32,000 bases of DNA from Nostoc sp. PCC 7120 = FACHB-418 (GTDB lineage: Bacteria > Cyanobacteriota > Cyanobacteriia > Cyanobacteriales > Nostocaceae): NCBI RefSeq assembly GCF_000009705.1, contig NC_003272.1, positions 3,360,001 to 3,392,000 on the forward strand, in the 5' to 3' direction. The translations under genes and the position numbers were made by a program. Under the pieces are notes generated by a model. That model worked only from the letters and a program-made list of their open reading frames with translations, had not been told where the DNA came from and searched no databases. Shown piece after piece: positions 7,200-30,929 of the stretch. Each line of letters opens with the position of its first letter. The first letter of the stretch is position 1.

Positions 7200-8891
7200 A
7201 TGTCGGAGAATTTTAGAAGCAAGGCTATCACACAAGGGGTACAGCGATCGCCTAACAGAGCAATGCTGCGGGCTGTTGGTTTTCAGGATGCAGATTTTAC
7301 CAAAGCCATTGTAGGTGTTGCCAATGGTTACAGCACGATTACCCCGTGTAATATGGGGATAAATCAACTAGCACAAAGGGCAGAAGCTGGTATAAATACT
7401 GCTGGAGCAAAGCCGCAAATATTCGGTACAATTACGATTAGTGATGGGATTTCGATGGGAACCGAAGGGATGAAATATTCCCTGGTATCACGAGAAGTAA
7501 TCGCTGACTCCATTGAAACCGTTTGTAATGGGCAAAGTTTAGACGGGGTAATTGCCATTGGTGGCTGTGATAAGAATATGCCAGGGGCAATGATTGCGAT
7601 CGCCCGGATAAATATCCCTGCTATCTTTGTTTACGGTGGCACAATTAAACCCGGACATTACAACGGTAAAGATTTAACTGTTGTCAGTTCTTTTGAGGCT
7701 GTTGGTGAGTACAGCGCCGGTAAAATTGACGAAAATGAACTGTTAGCAGTAGAACGCAATGCTTGTCCTGGTGCAGGTTCCTGCGGTGGGATGTACACAG
7801 CAAATACCATGTCCTCTGCTTTTGAAGCACTGGGGATGAGTTTGCCCTATTCGTCTACAATGGCGGCAGAAGATGACGAAAAAGCTGATAGTACGGAAGA
7901 ATCAGCCAAGGTATTGGTAGAGGCGATTCGTCATCAATTATTACCCAGACAGATTATCACTCGTAAGTCCATAGAAAACGCCATATCTGTAATTATGGCT
8001 GTGGGTGGTTCTACTAATGCGGTGTTACATTTTCTAGCGATCGCCCGTGCGGCTGGTGTAGAACTAAATCTGGACGACTTTGAAACTATTCGTGGTCGTG
8101 TCCCCGTTTTGTGCGACTTGAAACCAAGCGGTAGATATGTGGCTACAGACCTGCACAAAGCTGGTGGTATACCCCAAGTCATGAAAATGTTACTCGTGCA
8201 TGGTTTACTCCACGGCGACTGTATGACCATCACAGGTAAAACCATTGCCGAAGTTTTAGCAGATATCCCAGAAGAACCATCGCCTAATCAAGATGTAATT
8301 CGTCCTTGGAATAACCCCATGTATGCCCAAGGCCACTTGGCTATACTCAAAGGTAATTTGGCAACAGAAGGCGCAGTTGCCAAAATTACTGGTGTGAAAA
8401 ATCCTGTGATTACAGGGCCAGCCAAAGTATTTGAATCAGAAGAGGATTGTTTAGATGCAATTTTGGCAGGTAAAATTAAAGCCGGTGACGTGATTGTCAT
8501 CCGCTACGAAGGCCCCAAAGGCGGCCCTGGGATGCGAGAAATGTTAGCCCCCACCTCAGCTATTATCGGTGCAGGTTTAGGCGACTCAGTGGGACTAATT
8601 ACCGATGGACGCTTCTCCGGTGGTACTTACGGTATGGTTGTGGGACACGTTGCACCAGAAGCAGCCGTTGGTGGGGCGATCGCTCTGGTACAAGAAGGTG
8701 ATAGCATCACAATTGATGCCCACGCCCGTTCTTTGCAGTTGAACATATCAGACGAAGAATTAACCCGTCGTCGTGCCAATTGGCAACCCCGTCCCCCACG
8801 TTACACTACAGGCATACTGGCAAAATACGCCAAGTTGGTAGCTTCTAGTAGTGTGGGTGCTGTCACCGATTTAGACTTATTCAATAAATAG
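7200..8891 (+). CDS. ilvD: Dihydroxy-acid dehydratase
   Basis: 563-aa ORF with the N-terminus [22 protein letters not shown], plus [19 protein letters not shown] and ITDGRFSGG. Confidence 0.97.
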
Positions 8892-26586: not shown

Positions 26587-26874
26587 TTAAGTTGCAGCTT
26601 TATGTAGTGCAGCTAGTCTTTCATACTCTGCTTGTTCTTCTGCCAAATCTGTATCAATTTCTTCCCGGTTAGCATGATAGTAAGTTATCGCTGCATAGAC
26701 CTGCGCTATATTCAAATGGTTTTTGTCAGCAGCAATTTCTTCGGCGTTATAACCTTGCTTATATAAAGCTGCAATTCGACGCACAGATGTACCTGTTCCG
26801 GCAATAATGGGACGACCACCACGGAAGTTAGAATCTCTGGTAATAAGTGTACCGATATCAGTGATAGTTACCAA
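26587..26874 (-). CDS. DUF433-domain protein (antitoxin-like HTH)
   Basis: 95-aa ORF. GGRPIIAGTGTSVRRIAALYKQGYNAEEIAADKNHLNIAQVYAAITYYHANREEID matches the DUF433 signature. Confidence 0.85.
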   Translation of the reverse strand: MVTITDIGTLITRDSNFRGGRPIIAGTGTSVRRIAALYKQGYNAEEIAADKNHLNIAQVYAAITYYHANREEIDTDLAEEQAEYERLAALHKAAT

Positions 26875-27127: not shown

Positions 27128-29920
27128 TTAATGACGATTTAGCGATCGCCATAACCAGTAGAATGGTAAAAAGAATATTCTCAACAATAATTGTAAAATT
27201 CTACCTAATTGCCGTCGCCAAATAGCAACGGGAGTTAACTGGCGTTGCAGAAATGCCAAGTTTCCTCGAATTACCACCGTAGTGGGATGATTAACCCCTA
27301 ACACCCGTTGACACATCTGCAAAGCTTCCAAGTACAGGGGTTCGGCTTCTCCATACCTGCTTTGGCTTTCATAAAGTAGAGCTAAATTGTTTAAGCTAAT
27401 AACCATATCGGGATGGTCGCCCACAAACAGACGCTTTCTCATGGCTAAAGCTTCCAAGTACAGGGATTTGGCTTCTCCATACCTGCCTTGGCTTTTGTAA
27501 AGTGCAGCTAAATTGTTCAAGCTAATAACCATATCGGGATGGTCGCCCACAAACAGACGCTTTCTCATGGCTAAAGCTTCCAAGTACAGGGATTTGGCTT
27601 CTCCATACCTGCCTTGGCTTTTGTAAAGTGCAGCTAAATTGTTCAAGCTAGTAGCCACATCGGGATGGTCGCCCACAAACAGGCGCTTTCTCATGGCTAA
27701 AGCTTCCGAATACAAGGGTTCGGCTTCTCCATACCTGCCTTGGCTACGGTAAAGTCCAGCTAAATTGTTCAAGCTACTAGCTACATCGGGATGGTCGCCG
27801 ACAAACAGGCGCTTTGTCATGGCTAAGGCATCAATGTACAGGGGTTCGGCTTCTCCATACCTGTCTTGGCTACGGTAAAGTCCAGCTAAATTGTTCAAGC
27901 TACTAGCTACATCGGGATGGTCGCCGACAAACAGGCGCTTTGTCATGGCTAAGGCATCAATGTACAGGGGTTCGGCTTCTCCATACCTGCCTTGGCTACG
28001 GTAAAGTTCAGCTAAATTGTTCAAGCTACTAGCTACATCGGGATGGTCGCCGACAAACAGGCGCTTTGTCATGGCTAAGGCATCAATGTACAGGGGTTCG
28101 GCTTCTCCATACCTGCCTTGGCTACGGTAAAGTCCAGCTAAATTGTTCAAGCTACTAGCTACATCGGGATGGTCGCCGACAAACAGGCGCTTTGTCATGG
28201 CTAAGGCATCAATGAACAGGGGTTCGGCTTCTCCATACCTGCCTTGGCTACGGTAAAGTTCAGCTAAATTGTTCAAGCTAGTAGCCACATTGGGATGGTC
28301 ACCCACAAACAGACGCTTTGTCATGGCTAAGGCATCAATGTACAGGGGTTCGGCTTCTCCATACCTGCCTTGGCTATAGTAAAGTCCAGCTAAATTGTTC
28401 AAGTTTAGTGCGACATCGAAATTGTCGCCCACAAACAGGCGCTTTGTCATCGCTAAAGCATCAATAAACAGGGGTTCTGCTTCTCTATACCTGCCTTGGC
28501 TACGGTAAAGTTCAGCTAAATTGTTCAAGCTAGTAGCCATATTGGGATGGTCGCCTGGAAATACAGCTTGGCAAACCTTGAGGCATTCCTGATTCCAAGG
28601 TTCTGCTAATTGATATAGTCCTTGTCCGTTGTAAAATCTGGCTACGCCCACAAATACCCAAATTACTTCATCATTGGGGACTGATGCTGGGGAATTTATC
28701 TGTTCCTCACCTGCTTGATTAATGTCGTCAATTACCCGATTTCCTAAGTCTTCAATGTGGGGAACAACATCTTTGATGCGTTCGATATCCTTCGAGGTGG
28801 GTAACGGAGGAAGACTTTGAGCTTTATTTATCATCGCCCAAGCAAAGGTGTTTTCTAAAACCGCTTTCATCTCCCAAGCATCAGTTAATTGTTCTTGCAA
28901 GAACCACCGCACTAGAGTATGAATTTGATAATATCCTTGGCTGTCTTGTACCAGTTGCAGCAAGTTACGTTTGTAGAGTTGCTTTTTTGCCTCGTTTAAT
29001 TCCTCTGCTGACAAACCTAACCCCCCTAACCCCCCTTCTCTACCAGGGCATGGGGGAATTAAAGCCTCTCCCCGCGTCGGGGAGAGGTTTGGAGAGGGGT
29101 CATCTTCTTCCTCTCCTCCACTAGTCGCCACCCACACCACCAAATCCCACAGAATGGACTGGGGAGAAAATAAACTCAAAAATCTGCCTAATTGTTGGGC
29201 TAATGGGTCAAGTTCTGACCATGTTAAAGCAAAGGCGGCTTTCACTCCCAATTGGGTTGAGGTGAGGGTTTCCCGGTTTTGTAAGGCTGCTTCTGCTAAT
29301 TTGCGCTGTTGCAATTGTTCTAACATGACATCTAGAAACAAATCCGGGTCTTGTCGCAAATAAGCCCCCACTAACTCTATCCCCAAAGGCAAATATTCCA
29401 GAGATTTACAAATTGCGTTGGCAAAGACTGGTTGATTATCAACTCGCCTGTCTGTGTTTCCCAACAGTCCTTTTAACAGTTCTAATGCTTTGTCTGGTTC
29501 TTTTTCTGGGGAAAGAACATCTAAGGGAATATCTTGAATAAAATTTGGTTCTAAATTCCGCAGGCGAGTAGTCACTAAAACGCGAAAACGGTTATCAGTG
29601 GGGATAACTTCCCGTAAGTTGGCTAGGTCTGTGACATCATCAAAAATAATTAATATGGGTAAAAGAGATTCAGCATATTGCAGCCAACACCAAGCGATTT
29701 GTTCCTTGAGGGTTAATAGTCTTCCCCCTAGTTCTTGGGGAATCTCTAAACCAAGACCGATAAAAGACTCCAAAATTCCGGCGGCGAGATTGTTGGCTCT
29801 ATCATTAAACCAAGCAACACCATCATAATTAGCTTGATATCGTCTGGCGTATTGGGTGGCTAATTCGGTTTTGCCTATGCCTCCCATCCCTGATATTGCC
29901 ACATAATTACCACGCTGCAA
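27128..29920 (-). CDS. NLR-like STAND NTPase: NB-ARC (AP-ATPase) domain plus ten 42-aa TPR units. The called TTG start is almost certainly not the real N-terminus.
   Basis: Walker A GMGGIGKT, Walker B LLPILIIFDDV, RVLVTTR and the GLPL-like YLPLGIELVGAYL are present. Ten tandem HPDVASSLNNLAGLYRSQGRYGEAEPLYIDALAMTKRLFVGD units follow. The frame stays open upstream (…PRGSVHFVGREQELRLLHEDL) back to an in-frame TGA at 30032-30034, with no ATG/GTG/TTG in between. Confidence 0.9.
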   Translation of the reverse strand: MQRGNYVAISGMGGIGKTELATQYARRYQANYDGVAWFNDRANNLAAGILESFIGLGLEIPQELGGRLLTLKEQIAWCWLQYAESLLPILIIFDDVTDLANLREVIPTDNRFRVLVTTRLRNLEPNFIQDIPLDVLSPEKEPDKALELLKGLLGNTDRRVDNQPVFANAICKSLEYLPLGIELVGAYLRQDPDLFLDVMLEQLQQRKLAEAALQNRETLTSTQLGVKAAFALTWSELDPLAQQLGRFLSLFSPQSILWDLVVWVATSGGEEEDDPSPNLSPTRGEALIPPCPGREGGLGGLGLSAEELNEAKKQLYKRNLLQLVQDSQGYYQIHTLVRWFLQEQLTDAWEMKAVLENTFAWAMINKAQSLPPLPTSKDIERIKDVVPHIEDLGNRVIDDINQAGEEQINSPASVPNDEVIWVFVGVARFYNGQGLYQLAEPWNQECLKVCQAVFPGDHPNMATSLNNLAELYRSQGRYREAEPLFIDALAMTKRLFVGDNFDVALNLNNLAGLYYSQGRYGEAEPLYIDALAMTKRLFVGDHPNVATSLNNLAELYRSQGRYGEAEPLFIDALAMTKRLFVGDHPDVASSLNNLAGLYRSQGRYGEAEPLYIDALAMTKRLFVGDHPDVASSLNNLAELYRSQGRYGEAEPLYIDALAMTKRLFVGDHPDVASSLNNLAGLYRSQDRYGEAEPLYIDALAMTKRLFVGDHPDVASSLNNLAGLYRSQGRYGEAEPLYSEALAMRKRLFVGDHPDVATSLNNLAALYKSQGRYGEAKSLYLEALAMRKRLFVGDHPDMVISLNNLAALYKSQGRYGEAKSLYLEALAMRKRLFVGDHPDMVISLNNLALLYESQSRYGEAEPLYLEALQMCQRVLGVNHPTTVVIRGNLAFLQRQLTPVAIWRRQLGRILQLLLRIFFLPFYWLWRSLNRH
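27290..28549 (-). repeat. Ten tandem 126-bp TPR-coding units, several nearly identical at the DNA level
   Basis: The motif CTACATCGGG recurs at 27781, 27907, 28033 and 28159 (period exactly 126), and I saw only 1-3 nt differences per unit. A second near-identical pair lies at about 27403 and 27529. Confidence 0.95.
29018..29104. repeat. Small palindromic GC-rich repeat element embedded in-frame in the NB-ARC/TPR gene
   Basis: CCTAACCCCCCTAACCCCCCTTCTC...CCTCTCCCC-GCGTC-GGGGAGAGG-TTTGGAGAGGGGTC, with a perfect hairpin at 29065-29087. It encodes DPSPNLSPTRGEALIPPCPGREGGLGGLG. It resembles the CCCTCTCC/GGGGAGAGG element at 9100-9160. Confidence 0.55.
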
Positions 29921-30031
29921 ATCTTCATGCAGCAGTCTGAGTTCCTGTTCTCGACCGACGAAATGAACGGAACCACGAGGTATATATTTTGTGGGGGTTA
30001 ACTTTGTCTGTTCCCTGCCAGACGACTGTAG

Positions 30032-30472
30032 TCAAAAATTAAAACTACTACCTCTTTGGTCAATAGTTTGATTTTGTGCGGCATTAACTGCTTTTTGAAT
30101 GTTTTGGTTAAAAGTTGTAGGAAATGGATGTTGCGATTTTTCTATGGTTGCTTTAATTTCTTCGAGAATTTGAGCCAAATTTTTGGGAGGATTAACTTCT
30201 GCTGCTGCGGCTAATTCCTGTACAGCTTGCTTAACTTCTGGGTGCGCTTGAGTTGCTGTTTCTACATCAATTACAGCTTTACCATAATCCAGGGGTTCGT
30301 CTGATGCTTTTTCAATGGCGACTACAGTCTGGGGAGAGTGTTTTCTCAAGGTGACGAGAAACTTACTAGTTTTATCCCAGAGAGTTTCACCGATTATTTC
30401 CCCGGTTCTTTCTAAGGCTTTGGTGGCTAGGACTGTGCCAATGGCGATCGCCGCAGTAGTTAGTGGTTCCAT
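30032..30472 (-). CDS. 146-aa all-helical ORF with a hydrophobic N-terminal helix and Q/N-rich tail; a probable N-terminal effector module of the downstream NLR-like gene (same frame, separated by one TGA)
   Basis: MEPLTTAAIAIGTVLATKALERTGEIIGETLW... has a hydrophobic/amphipathic first helix. The tail is TFNQNIQKAVNAAQNQTIDQRGSSFNF. The stop TGA 30034..30032 lies exactly 38 codons, in frame, upstream of the called NB-ARC start. Confidence 0.7.
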   Translation of the reverse strand: MEPLTTAAIAIGTVLATKALERTGEIIGETLWDKTSKFLVTLRKHSPQTVVAIEKASDEPLDYGKAVIDVETATQAHPEVKQAVQELAAAAEVNPPKNLAQILEEIKATIEKSQHPFPTTFNQNIQKAVNAAQNQTIDQRGSSFNF

Positions 30473-30556: not shown

Positions 30557-30618
30557 CGGGGATTTTTAACGCGGAGGGTCGCGGAGGTAAGCGCAGAGGG
30601 GCGCGGAGTGTAAGAGGC
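30557..30618. repeat. Dispersed GC-rich CGCGGAGG/CGCAGAGG repeat beginning with GGGGATTTTTAA (copy B)
   Basis: CGGGGATTTTTAACGCGGAGGGTCGCGGAGGTAAGCGCAGAGGGGCGCGGAGTGTAAGAGG shares its blocks with 15911-15983. Confidence 0.6.
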
Positions 30619-30641: not shown

Positions 30642-30830
30642 CAATCAACTTAGTTTCGTGACGAATCAACTTAGTTTGGTGACCAATCAACTCAGTTTCG
30701 TGACCAATCAATTTAGTTTCGTGACCAATCAACTTAGTTTCGTGACCAATCAACTTAGTTTCGTGACCAATCAACTTAGTTTCGTGACCAATCAACTCAG
30801 TTTCGTGACCAATCAACTTAGTTTCGTGAC
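30642..30830. repeat. Nine tandem copies of the 21-bp unit CAATCAACTTAGTTTCGTGAC
   Basis: Units start at 30642, 30663, 30684, 30705, 30726, 30747, 30768, 30789 and 30810, with 0-2 substitutions each. The array is open in frames on both strands only because 21 is a multiple of 3 and the unit has no stop. Confidence 0.95.
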
Positions 30831-30929
30831 CAACGCAAGTTTTTTCAGTGAGTTCACTAGCACACAGATATAACATTATGGAGTAATAAGCTATTCTGCT
30901 TTTAAGTTGCATAATCAATCGTGAAGGCT

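Follow-up and report, generated by a model that had tools for sequence, protein, structure and literature searches.

An in-frame UGA and a conserved downstream RNA hairpin between a Bell-like effector and an NB-ARC/TPR sensor in Nostoc sp. PCC 7120: candidate programmed readthrough

The window analysed here, a 32,000-nt stretch of Nostoc sp. PCC 7120 (NC_003272.1), contains a small helical open reading frame (ORF-A) that is followed in the same frame by a large NB-ARC/TPR frame (ORF-B), and an in-frame TGA lies between them, which raises the question of how the sensor half is translated. With a probability of about 0.65, we propose that positions 30472-27128 form one translation unit, in which programmed UGA readthrough would connect the two parts of a Bell-type effector/NB-ARC-TPR system of cell death or anti-phage defence. 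That readthrough takes place, how efficient it is and which amino acid is inserted are inferred from sequence, as are a cell-death or anti-phage phenotype and amyloid behaviour of the ORF-A tail.

Anatomy of the locus

The locus (27128-30472, minus strand) comprises exactly 1115 codons in a single frame, common to ORF-A and ORF-B (Table 1) and broken once, and all 967 codons past the TGA are open in the window. The sequence-only reading had described one continuous frame, of which the shared frame stands and the lack of interruption does not, given this single TGA. In the frame of ORF-A and ORF-B, none of the 37 codons 3′ of the TGA is ATG, GTG or TTG; they encode the pre-P-loop motif FVGREQELRLLHEDL and, as part of the STAND module, the conserved hhGRE strand that precedes the P-loop, and translation confirmed the earlier remark that this motif lies upstream of the TTG, in the same frame and with no usable start.

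Table 1. Features of the locus, in window coordinates
Feature	Position	Strand	Description
ORF-A	30472..30032	minus	146 aa, ATG start; coding part 30472-30035
Bell-like helical effector domain, ORF-A residues 1-111	30140..30472	minus	starts MEPLTTAAIAIGTVLATKALE; AlphaFold2 (AF2) and homologues
Q/N-rich C-terminal tail, ORF-A residues 112-146	30035..30139	minus	ends …FNQNIQKAVNAAQNQTIDQRGSSFNF; abuts stop
In-frame TGA stop, then C (UGA-C context)	30034..30032	minus	read from sequence; conserved
Conserved post-stop RNA element	29993..30031	minus	8-nt spacer, 5-bp hairpin, A-rich stretch, C-run
37 sense codons, TGA to first canonical start (TTG, 29920)	29921..30031	minus	encode LQSSGREQTKLTPTKYIPRGSVHFVGREQELRLLHED
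930-aa ORF (ORF-B)	29920..27128	minus	TTG start; frame of ORF-A
NB-ARC NTPase domain	29294..29935	minus	Pfam PF00931, E=4.4e-14, residues 33-246 of post-TGA protein
ORF-B segment without nucleotide match in L038 orthologue	29022..29104	minus	BLASTN, window against L038
About ten near-identical 42-aa TPR units	27284..28555	minus	126-bp tandem repeats

The P-loop GMGGIGKT (29890-29867) lies 11 aa past the TTG, and the Walker B motif LIIFDDV, VLVTTR and LPLGIELVG were all found in the ORF-B translation; together with the PF00931 match, they bear out the full NB-ARC motif set and the P-loop position read earlier. The ten TPR units counted in that reading agree with Tandem Repeats Finder (126-bp unit, 9.8 copies, 93% identity, 27321-28555) and with Pfam, which placed TPR_10 in 11 stretches and TPR_12 in 9. 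These repeats are presumed to form the ligand-sensing domain, and ORF-B ends in a hydrophobic tail followed by the stop at 27130-27128. One segment of ORF-B (29104-29022) has 83 nt in the window versus 20 nt (7704-7723) in L038, the orthologous locus of Nostoc parmelioides, a net difference of +63 nt that keeps the frame; it holds a palindrome, CCTCTCCCCGACGCGGGGAGAGG (29087-29065), called terminator-like, and encodes …SPTRGEALIPPCPGREGGLGG….

ORF-A is all-helical in a confident AF2 model (pLDDT 86.8, pTM 0.82), with domain helices at residues 3-23, 29-45, 47-54, 63-76, 78-93 and 99-111, and helix 1 is hydrophobic with a central Gly (MEPLTTAAIAIGTVLATKALE), so that model and sequence agree with the helical N-terminal ORF, hydrophobic first helix and Q/N-rich tail noted previously. 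Its 473 close homologues are nearly all 144-148 aa long, and the family (347 clusters at 50% identity) is large in Nostocales, consisting of helical proteins of about 130-160 aa whose first helix is hydrophobic and of the Bell type ("MEPxx"). A MEPxx/MEPIS-type N-terminus and a Gly-containing hydrophobic helix 1 have been reported for Bell, Hell and Babybell domains, and the N-terminal module of ORF-A is probably membrane-targeting. No family for ORF-A was found in Pfam, PADLOC or NCBIfam, and a fold search of the PDB gave no match. The suggestion that this is an undescribed execution domain was nevertheless abandoned in view of the family size and the MEPxx helix, and because the homologues in sister loci are effectors of classical effector/NLR pairs that share an amyloid-type motif; on sequence comparison, ORF-A is homologous to these effectors.

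The Q/N-rich tail, judged by its sequence a candidate amyloid-type signalling motif, is kept as FIQNIEKAINAAQNQTIDQRGSTFNI among homologues. Other TGA-type loci have different G/N/Q-rich tails in this position, including KLAEKIGLVIQGGNVNINEVKF, a motif type present on both proteins of two-gene loci. Since AF2 models tail residues 119-140 as a helix and not as a beta-motif, amyloid behaviour of the tail stays putative. The assignment to an NLR/STAND-type locus, with a helical N-terminal module and a signalling-type tail rich in Q and N, is supported.

Evidence from conservation: stop, frame and RNA element

The frame was compared in 60 loci with an ORF-A homologue ending in TGA, "open" being defined as at least 100 codons directly after the TGA. 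Frame 0 was open in 52/60 loci (median 716 codons), whereas frames +1 and +2 reached 100 codons in 0/60, with a maximum of 78; the same-frame arrangement of ORF-A and sensor is far beyond chance. About 85 related loci with differing sensor modules retain both the in-frame TGA and the hairpin, and TGA is the stop in 86/86 hairpin-bearing instances. The base at +4 is C in 79/91 cases and T in 0/91 (C45 G8 A1 T0 in the genome set; C34 G2 A1 T0 in the metagenome set). In two-gene sister loci, the effector mostly ends in TAA (17 times) or TAG (4 times). The modules found 3′ of the TGA include NB-ARC+TPR, NACHT+HEAT+NCC-H, NACHT, CHASE2, FGE-sulfatase, PsbP-like and CHAT+TPR, and this variety indicates that the stop-in-frame junction has been maintained across many fusions. 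Among 62 related instances, the first ATG, GTG or TTG falls 3′ of the hhGRE motif in 40 and an ATG ahead of this motif was found in none, and the sequences thus appear to hold no conserved start codon for the sensor of TGA-type loci.

A single protein among 5.8 billion spans the junction, P0121 of Dolichospermum, in which Trp (TGG) replaces the stop and the beginning of the NB-ARC domain is intact, and this rarity suggests that selection keeps the stop. The same near-absence of sense variants bears on the view that an all-in-one effector-NLR gene was hit by a nonsense mutation and has decayed, leaving the 146-aa fragment or nothing useful. Some copies are indeed clearly degenerate (L049/L105 read TGA CTG TAG, L027 has a later TAA, and the downstream frames of L003, L037 and L029 are short), and ORF-B of the window has the net 63 nt of extra sequence; but about 85 loci, differing in their sensors, share an identical stop position, and their downstream ORFs are undamaged and reach up to 1230 codons, including the open frame and ten intact TPR units of the window, which makes decay highly unlikely.

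The conserved TGA and RNA hairpin, overlooked by the sequence-only reading, are in our judgement the most interesting feature of the locus. The element has the consensus TGA-N8-GYCYG-N8-CRGRY-AAAGTTAA-N-CCC and occurs at one site in the window, with none expected by chance. There, the 8-nt spacer (30031-30024) is followed by the 5′ stem GUCUG (30023-30019), the 8-nt loop GCAGGGAA (30018-30011), the 3′ stem CAGAC (30010-30006), the A-rich AAAGUUAA (30005-29998) and a C-run (29997-29993), and possible pairing of the C-run with the loop GGG might form an H-type pseudoknot. Alignment A2 shows pairing in 98.4% of the stem cells and compensatory changes at 3/5 pairs, and RNAalifold predicts the identical hairpin. 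The main covarying pair is UA in 51, CG in 32, UG in 3 and CA in 0 of 86 instances, and the window carries a doubly compensated U-A pair; each tail class, and 3/4 sensor classes, include both the UA and the CG variant, which could partly represent two cassette haplotypes that spread by recombination, as opposed to numerous compensations of independent origin. The element is also fixed at its synonymous sites (TCG 41/41, CGG 44/44, ACA 28/28, TTA 41/41, CCC 39/40). The second, pseudoknot stem is 86.5% paired and, being nearly invariant, is unproven by covariation; the hairpin itself is short and thermodynamically unremarkable (z = -0.39), and Rfam holds no matching family. When metagenomes were scanned with the hairpin sequence alone, the stop being left unspecified, 39 loci were retrieved, and 39/39 have an in-frame TGA exactly 7 nt upstream, with an effector-like ORF before it and a long ORF after it.

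The fixed spacing also bears on whether occasional, unprogrammed misreading of UGA would suffice, the element having some other role, for instance in the stability or processing of the mRNA, in binding a protein or sRNA, or as a DNA recombination site for cassette movement. The weakness of the hairpin, the in-frame TGA without hairpin in Dapis (L028) and Okeania (L029), and the cassette exchange between orthologous loci described below are consistent with such leakiness; we consider it improbable, however, given that the element keeps a constant 8-nt distance from the TGA in all 39 of the unbiased matches, the spacing seen in known readthrough and frameshift stimulators, and that the compensatory changes in the stem favour an RNA helix over a DNA site. 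A stop that is exclusively UGA with a hairpin directly 3′ also resembles bacterial selenoprotein genes, in which case the TGA would encode selenocysteine and the hairpin would be a minimal SECIS element. This is extremely unlikely: no homologue has Cys there and the sole sense variant is Trp, the position falls in a linker between domains, where a redox residue would make no sense, the short hairpin (5-bp stem, 8-nt GGGAA loop) is unlike the longer one bound by SelB, and Rfam gives no SECIS.

Two-gene sister loci and the proposed mechanism

The NLR of two-gene loci starts at a separate ATG and carries a second copy of the motif found at the effector's C-terminus, whereas the NLR of TGA-type loci has neither, and a single motif lies just ahead of the TGA; the motif type KLAEKIG..V.GG..NI was found in both arrangements. 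L038, about 95% identical to the window locus, is such a two-gene pair. The two loci are about 95% identical on either flank and differ in a central cassette, which spans 186 nt in the window (tail-TGA-hairpin) versus 522 nt in L038 (motif-TAA-spacer-ATG-motif), and from 30010 onward the window is 95.7% identical to the L038 NLR gene; judging from these alignments, orthologous loci have clearly exchanged the cassette. It had been suggested that orthologues consisting of two genes with their own starts would speak against a joint system, and L038 is literally of this kind; since its effector C-terminus and NLR N-terminus share the motif, however, the pair supports functional coupling rather than refuting it.

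These loci also help to weigh translational coupling, in which ribosomes would terminate at the UGA and re-initiate on or shortly past the following codon, or on a non-canonical one among the first 13 or so, the hairpin holding or stalling them, and the NLR would be made without effector domain and tail. The Bell and NLR genes of classical pairs frequently overlap or adjoin (10.1101/2020.01.06.895854), the +1 codon is often CTG (19/50) or GTG, both possible weak starts, and re-initiation exactly at codon +1 would likewise preserve frame 0. Yet the +1 codon is also CTA (15), CCA, CCG, GAA, CAG or ATC, which are non-initiators, no Shine-Dalgarno-like sequence precedes the TGA, and coupling has no need for TGA specifically or for the avoidance of T at +4. 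In addition, the NLR would have no effector-coupling motif, while every two-gene paralogue has one, and the natural TGG variant shows that the fusion is tolerated. Coupling is therefore an unlikely explanation.

Under programmed readthrough, the majority of ribosomes would stop at the UGA and release the helical membrane-targeting domain with its Q/N-rich tail, and a fraction would decode UGA as sense, most likely as Trp via near-cognate tRNA-Trp, aided by the weak UGA-C context and by the conserved hairpin, possibly a small H-type pseudoknot, 8 nt downstream. The latter ribosomes would enter the NB-ARC and 10-TPR sensor and yield a 1114-aa effector-tail-sensor fusion. The readthrough frequency would set a high effector:sensor ratio, and readthrough would put the tail motif of the free effector on the sensor as well. 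The activated, oligomerised sensor may then nucleate or recruit free effector, as in two-gene Bell/BASS-NLR (BASS, bacterial amyloid signalling sequence) and fungal HET-S/NWD2 systems, and the end result would be membrane damage and cell death.

Comparison with known systems

The Bell/HeLo and amyloid-signalling comparison drawn earlier proved apt. Sister loci including L038 are textbook Bell/BASS-NLR pairs with the motif on both proteins. Bell/BASS-NLR pairs of filamentous bacteria (Dyrka et al., 2020; bioRxiv 10.1101/2020.01.06.895854) and the E. coli Bab/Agp abortive-infection pair (Ibarlosa et al., 2024; bioRxiv 10.1101/2024.11.07.622273) resemble this locus in the helical N-domain, which measures about 100 aa and has a hydrophobic helix 1 of the MEPxx type, the G/N/Q-rich C-terminal tail, the adjoining, collinear NB-ARC/TPR protein with highly similar repeats, and the abundance in Nostocaceae. 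Unlike in Bell/BASS-NLR pairs, the NLR here lacks a start codon and a motif copy of its own, and the one motif copy is followed by the conserved in-frame TGA and RNA hairpin. The terms "stop codon" and "readthrough" have 0 occurrences in both preprints, whose motif-pair search design would miss TGA-type loci, and we found no earlier description of this readthrough arrangement in the literature.

ORF-B also matches NCBIfam NF040586 ("FxSxx-COOH system tetratricopeptide repeat protein"; 364.6 bits, cut-off 300), with which it shares the NB-ARC+TPR architecture. ORF-A, however, ends in …GSSFNF and not in FxSxx, and no radical-SAM partner was found among the flanking genes scanned with Pfam (part of the window ORFs); the match most likely reflects generic architecture. 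The predicted readthrough product, with an N-terminal helical execution domain followed by NB-ARC and TPR, is identical in architecture to all-in-one NLRs (fungal HeLo/HELL-NLRs, plant CC-NLRs such as ZAR1, bacterial Bell-NLR fusions). The true fusions of the ORF-A N-domain recovered in this analysis combine it with HEAT repeats, a dynamin-like GTPase or unidentified modules, and lack the ERERxKL linker. Unlike in all-in-one NLRs, the stop is kept here between effector and NOD, so that free effector would also be made, probably in excess.

Known readthrough signals include MuLV gag-pol (UAG, 8-nt spacer, pseudoknot), the UGA-C and stem-loop of alphaviruses and coltiviruses, and Qbeta coat/A1 (UGA), for which we know of no dedicated downstream structure. 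The present locus shares with viral signals the conserved, putatively leaky UGA-C stop, the in-frame extension by a functional domain, the structure about 8 nt downstream and, presumably, a fixed ratio of short to extended product; it differs in its cellular, bacterial genes, in a stem of no more than 5 bp and in a pseudoknot that is still hypothetical. To our knowledge, the known cases of programmed stop-codon readthrough are viral, mostly eukaryotic, and RNA-structure-stimulated programmed readthrough is not established for bacterial chromosomal genes. If the proposed reading is true, one gene would supply both the short effector and the effector-sensor fusion, and readthrough of this kind would extend to a cellular, chromosomal, multi-copy bacterial gene family.

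Frame anatomy and surroundings of the locus

Translation of the minus strand from ORF-A, a helical effector-like reading frame, through ORF-B, the NB-ARC and TPR (NLR) frame behind it, yields a single frame of 1115 codons with only one internal stop, the TGA that ends ORF-A. The sequence-only reading had described an NLR-like locus in one continuous frame; its observations on the sequence were correct, but the frame is interrupted by this stop, and the N-terminal module, which shares the frame of ORF-B but is separated from it by the TGA, would belong to the same polypeptide only if the stop were read through. The TGA is followed by 37 sense codons (LQSSGREQTKLTPTKYIPRGSVHFVGREQELRLLHED) that include no ATG, GTG or TTG, and the next codon is the TTG chosen by a mechanical ORF finder as the start of a 930-aa ORF.

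Coordinates of the features of the locus, relative to the window
Feature	Position	Strand	Description
ORF-A	ATG at 30472 to TGA 30034-30032	minus	146 codons
Single frame, ORF-A through ORF-B	30472-27128		sole internal stop TGA 30034-30032
TTG, start called for the 930-aa ORF	29920		
Hairpin	GUCUG 30023-30019 : CAGAC 30010-30006	minus	5 bp, 8-nt loop, starts 8 nt past TGA
Segment differing from the orthologous locus	30011-30196		tail, TGA, hairpin
83-nt segment of ORF-B	29022-29104		between NB-ARC and TPR regions
Palindrome in the 83-nt segment	29065-29087		perfect, CCTCTCCCCGACGCGGGGAGAGG
TPR-encoding tandem repeat	27321-28555		126 bp x 9.8 copies, 93% identity
Hydrophobic tail of ORF-B	27131-27250		past last TPR unit
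DUF433 gene	26587-26874	minus	95 aa, directly 3' of NLR stop
21-bp tandem repeat	30642-30833 (also 30570-30614)		9.1 copies, 94% identity, ~170 bp 5' of ORF-A start

ORF-B is a STAND/NLR protein, in which an NB-ARC domain with Walker motifs is joined to C-terminal superstructure-forming repeats. The NB-ARC domain matches Pfam PF00931 at E=4.4e-14 (52.8 bits against a cut-off of 23.5), and the motif set that had been called complete is indeed present (GMGGIGKT, LIIFDDV, VLVTTR and LPLGIELVG, with both Walker A and Walker B). Pfam finds TPR_10 in 11 stretches and TPR_12 in 9, corresponding to 10-11 units. ORF-B, taken as 27131-30031, also scores 364.6 bits against NCBIfam NF040586, the 'FxSxx-COOH system TPR protein', for which the curated cut-off is 300 bits. 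Membership in an FxSxx-COOH system was rejected, as ORF-A ends in SSFNF and the flanking genes scanned, a subset of the window ORFs, include no FxsB radical-SAM/SPASM protein; the match is most probably one of generic architecture, and automatic annotation of this type may mislabel such NLRs.

The C-terminus of ORF-B, past the final TPR repeat, is strongly hydrophobic (…RQLGRILQLLLRIFFLPFYWLWRSLNRH); this tail may be a membrane anchor, which would be unusual for an NLR. In addition, the 83-nt segment of ORF-B has no nucleotide match in L038, the ~95%-identical orthologous locus of Nostoc parmelioides FACHB-3921, where 20 nt stand in its place (net +63 nt, frame kept). The segment, which encodes …SPTRGEALIPPCPGREGGLGG…, looks like a small mobile repeat tolerated in frame.

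The flanking genes scanned with Pfam encode Rieske/amine oxidase, DUF433, 7TM-HD and topoisomerase I proteins. The DUF433 protein was identified by PF04255 (E=4.5e-16), and DUF433 proteins are often antitoxin-like partners. Upstream of ORF-A, the 21-bp tandem repeat CAATCAACTTAGTTTCGTGAC, which yields spurious ORFs on both strands (GHETKLI and TNQLSFV repeats) and is also kept at L038, could represent a regulatory array or one of the STRR-like repeats of cyanobacteria.

The effector domain and its two-gene relatives

Anabaena sp. FACHB-709 has a protein that matches ORF-A with 100% identity. ORF-A has 473 close homologues, nearly all 144-148 aa long, and its profile retrieved 347 clusters, nearly all of 120-160 aa, from 1.84 billion cluster representatives. 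Family scans of ORF-A against Pfam, PADLOC and NCBIfam returned nothing significant, and Pfam holds no Bell model. Weak matches to OmpH and MCE/MlaD were rejected as coiled-coil noise, and the names 'MlaD' and 'SPINDLY' carried by homologues in JGI were judged not credible.

Bell-type effectors are described as all-helical domains, ~80-100 aa long, in which a hydrophobic helix 1 at the N-terminus is cupped by the helices (Dyrka et al., 2020; Ibarlosa et al., 2024). The AlphaFold2 (AF2) model of ORF-A, built from 73 homologues (pLDDT 86.8, pTM 0.82), is likewise predicted to be all-helical with a hydrophobic helix 1 (residues 3-23), a likeness that concerns helix content and hydrophobicity, as cupping was not read from the coordinates. 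The N-terminus MEPLTTAAIAIGTV, in which M1, L4, A8 and A10 are invariant or nearly so across the family, appears to correspond, with Gly, to the 'MEPIS'-motif/helix-1 signature, as matched by eye and not with the authors' profile; this signature is shared by execution domains of the Bell, Hell and Babybell types and also occurs in several antiphage NLRs (Ibarlosa et al., 2024, 10.1101/2024.11.07.622273). A Foldseek search of the PDB with the AF2 model gave no match (best E = 0.5, TM <0.35; presence of the Bab structure in the PDB set unconfirmed), which argues neither for nor against Bell membership because the same authors report that, apart from the helix-1 signature, helical topologies vary among these domains. 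The tail of ORF-A is Q/N-rich in composition, and AF2 gives a helix there.

The decisive evidence is contextual. A sister subfamily consists of ~132-aa proteins with a TAA or TAG stop (TAA in 17 and TAG in 4 of the two-gene loci), whose C-terminal motif recurs at the N-terminus of the downstream NLR, for example LEKLADKIGQVVMPGGTGNIQNMSF in the effector and MPEDSGKFADKIGAYAAPGGQVNIGTQIIEGQKQLTPTKYIPRGSVHFVGRE… at the NLR start; the NLR has its own ATG, in any frame, 17-509 nt from the effector. This layout of separately initiated adjacent genes with a shared motif was observed in L038 and ~20 sister loci. It is exactly the arrangement of the Bell/BASS-NLR pairs (BASS, bacterial amyloid signalling sequence), in which the same ~25-aa G/N/Q-rich motif occurs at the effector C-terminus and the NLR N-terminus of adjacent genes (Dyrka et al., 2020, 10.1101/2020.01.06.895854). 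Because the sister-subfamily genes form such pairs, ORF-A most probably belongs to a described kind of effector, and the earlier suggestion that its module might be an undescribed execution domain is not upheld, given the Bell-type N-terminus and this gene-pair context. In the window, ORF-B has neither its own start nor a copy of the motif, so that the two-gene layout is absent.

Comparison of the window with L038 revealed 95.1% identity over 31000-30197 and 95.7% over 30010-29105. The central segment differs, comprising 186 nt in the window and 522 nt in L038 (6276-6797), where a BASS-type tail, TAA, a 305-nt spacer, ATG and a second motif copy are found. This pattern implies that recombination between paralogous loci replaced the signalling cassette, and since the flanks are ~95% identical while the cassettes differ, the two architectures are interchangeable solutions at one locus. 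In addition, two-gene loci contain the motif type KLAEKIG..V.GG..NI in duplicate, and two other loci (L085 and L119) have one copy of it, before the TGA.

Conservation of the in-frame TGA and of the RNA element behind it

Among 80 genome loci with ORF-A relatives, 59 end in TGA (60 including the window). Directly after the TGA, frame 0 is open for at least 100 codons in 52 of these 60 loci (median 716, maximum 1230), and the other two frames close at a median of 10 and 16 codons and are never open beyond 78. The modules that follow are diverse, including NB-ARC+TPR, a second NB-ARC type, NACHT+HEAT+NCC-H, NACHT, CHASE2, FGE-sulfatase, PsbP-like, TPR-only and CHAT+TPR. A search of 5.8 billion proteins with a junction-spanning peptide found one crossing protein, a Dolichospermum fragment (P0121) with Trp (TGG) at the stop position. 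With frame 0 kept open and only this one protein crossing the junction, selection appears to act on the stop as well as on the frame. A pseudogene, in which the TGA would simply be a disabling mutation, is a very improbable account and was rejected for the family as a whole, since the arrangement recurs with long intact downstream ORFs, even if individual decayed copies do exist (L003, L027, L037 and the pair L049/L105).

Two Dolichospermum copies have TGG for the conserved TGA: P0121 runs into an intact NB-ARC start, and L027 (6001-6532), with a later TAA inside its FVGRE motif, looks like a decaying copy. In L049 (~6421) and L105 of Brasilonema angustatum, a double stop, TGA CTG TAG, precedes an intact hairpin and an in-frame NB-ARC ORF, which may reflect either a recent nonsense mutation or a need for two readthrough events.

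No conserved independent start exists for the downstream ORF. The first canonical start lies 1-115 codons 3' of the TGA (median 34); it falls after the hhGRE pre-P-loop motif in 40 of 62 instances, and an ATG never precedes that motif. We consider termination-reinitiation, by which the NLR would be made as a separate protein, unlikely: the +1 codons include non-initiators (CTA, CCA, GAA and others), a Shine-Dalgarno sequence is absent, only TGA is used, and a coupling motif is functionally needed.

The stop is always TGA; at +4, 79 of 91 instances have C and none has T. UGA-C is the weakest termination context in E. coli and bacteria, and U at +4 gives the strongest, so the stop context at the TGA-type loci is predicted to be leaky. 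The post-TGA consensus reads TGA CTR NAG TCG YCY GAM SGG GAA CGG RYA AAG TTA ANT CCC. Synonymous sites are nearly fixed at codons +3 and +7 to +13 (TCG 41/41, GAA 42/42, CGG 44/44, ACA 28/28, AAG 49/49, TTA 41/41, CCC 39/40), unlike the four-fold sites 5' of the stop, which vary freely.

This stretch contains the hairpin, which was independently predicted by RNAalifold. In the alignment, pairing holds for 98.4% of stem cells and three pairs show compensatory changes; the most variable pair, across 86 distinct instances, is U-A in 51, C-G in 32, U-G in 3 and C-A in none. Every upstream-tail class, and three of the four downstream-module classes, contain both the U-A and the C-G variant, and the window has a doubly compensated U-A pair where C-G is found in most loci. 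The covariation thus points to a conserved RNA structure ~8 nt 3' of the stop, though the hairpin is weak. It is part of the minimum-free-energy fold, but at z = -0.39 its stability is unexceptional, and therefore the argument rests on conservation, not stability. The loop GGG and a C-run 9-10 nt past the stem, always present and with hardly varying bases, could pair into a small H-type pseudoknot whose third loop would be A-rich, a hypothesis that is geometrically plausible and that near-invariance places beyond demonstration by covariation.

The hairpin pattern occurs once in the window. Searched over the full window at the gathering threshold, and near the TGA with E relaxed to 10, Rfam yielded no family, SECIS and known recoding elements included. 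A phage element was rejected as the identity of the hairpin after a scan of viral contigs gave 0 matches. Metagenome contigs were searched with the hairpin sequence alone, the stop being unspecified, and in all 39 loci recovered a TGA lies exactly 7 nt 5' of the pattern, and every one of these stops shares its frame with a preceding effector-like ORF and with a long ORF that follows. The preceding ORFs encode a variety of MEP… helical domains, 135-187 aa in length, whose tails are G/N/Q-rich; in one case the module is weakly alpha/beta-hydrolase-like. The joint occurrence of the stop and a downstream in-frame coding ORF (52/60 genome loci, 39/39 metagenome loci, one sense variant) is conserved across homologues.

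In L103 (683-1951), the TGA and hairpin follow an ORF of at least 309 aa that is not Bell-like and has sub-threshold Pfam matches of alpha/beta-hydrolase type (best E=1e-4), and because of this weak resemblance the cassette may not be restricted to one effector type. Conversely, the ORF-A homologues L028 (Dapis sp., ~6439) and L029 (Okeania sp., ~3862), from Oscillatoriales, have a TGA and then an in-frame ORF with a TM-like segment and TPRs, and the hairpin consensus is absent from their post-TGA sequence. Since these loci have the TGA without the hairpin, the in-frame arrangement may be older or more general than the RNA element. They also favor, together with the weakness of the hairpin, the unlikely alternative that the stop is only basally leaky and that the conserved element has another role.

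Decoding of the TGA as selenocysteine is the least probable of the explanations considered. The UGA lies in a linker position where no homologue has Cys and the sole sense variant is Trp, the hairpin is unlike a SECIS, and a survey found the Sec-decoding trait absent from the cyanobacteria examined (PMC1273633).

Proposed programmed readthrough and its relation to known systems

Programmed UGA readthrough at the end of ORF-A is the best-supported reading of these sequence comparisons. Termination at the UGA would give the 146-aa effector with its tail, and occasional decoding, probably as Trp, would extend it to an effector-tail-NB-ARC-TPR protein of 1114 aa. Stop context and hairpin would determine how much short product is made relative to long; with the UGA in the A site, the hairpin would lie at the mRNA entry channel. 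Readthrough would explain why the NLR lacks a start and an N-terminus, why TGA alone is used and why the frame is conserved across unrelated sensors, as well as the scarcity of sense variants, the position-locked RNA element and the lack of another copy of the motif. If Bell/BASS and HET-S/NWD2 signalling are a guide, an activated sensor oligomer may nucleate or recruit free effector via the shared tail, and helix 1 may then be freed to attack the membrane. As UGA is read only by RF2, one may speculate that sensor dosage could also respond to translational stress.

More broadly, we propose, with a probability of roughly 0.55, that Nostocales and some other filamentous cyanobacteria use a modular recoding cassette, a leaky UGA-C with a hairpin or pseudoknot 8 nt on, to link death effectors to varied sensors (NB-ARC, NACHT, CHASE2, FGE-sulfatase, CHAT and others). 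One ORF would thereby give abundant free effector and a rare fusion, functionally replacing the two-gene amyloid pair, and the cassette would be exchanged between loci by recombination. Readthrough would also explain why many annotated cyanobacterial NLRs seemingly have no N-terminus and start codon, and why hundreds of ~146-aa 'hypothetical proteins' precede NLRs; at present, gene callers break TGA-type loci in two and place a spurious start at an internal TTG or GTG. The gene family supplies ~85 or more naturally occurring examples, complete with covariation and with a TGG variant that can serve as a natural control, and the proposal is testable in Anabaena/Nostoc PCC 7120.

In viruses, programmed readthrough of a stop codon under the influence of a dedicated RNA stimulator is textbook knowledge. 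To our knowledge it is essentially without example in bacterial cellular genes, and we know of no precedent among bacterial chromosomal genes for a leaky stop combined with a conserved RNA element. If true, the present case would be the first widespread structure-stimulated programmed readthrough in bacterial chromosomal genes and a new way to set stoichiometry in prokaryotic immunity. The class of system, a Bell-type effector with an NB-ARC/TPR NLR, is already known; the leaky-stop architecture with its conserved RNA element was not found in the studies describing it (Dyrka et al., 2020, 10.1101/2020.01.06.895854; Ibarlosa et al., 2024, 10.1101/2024.11.07.622273), and a full-text literature search of incomplete coverage returned no description of an effector-TGA-hairpin-NLR arrangement. 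Such a 'leaky all-in-one' would stand as a third architecture, intermediate between two-gene amyloid pairs and true fusions, with a bearing on effector-to-sensor stoichiometry and on the control of nucleation.
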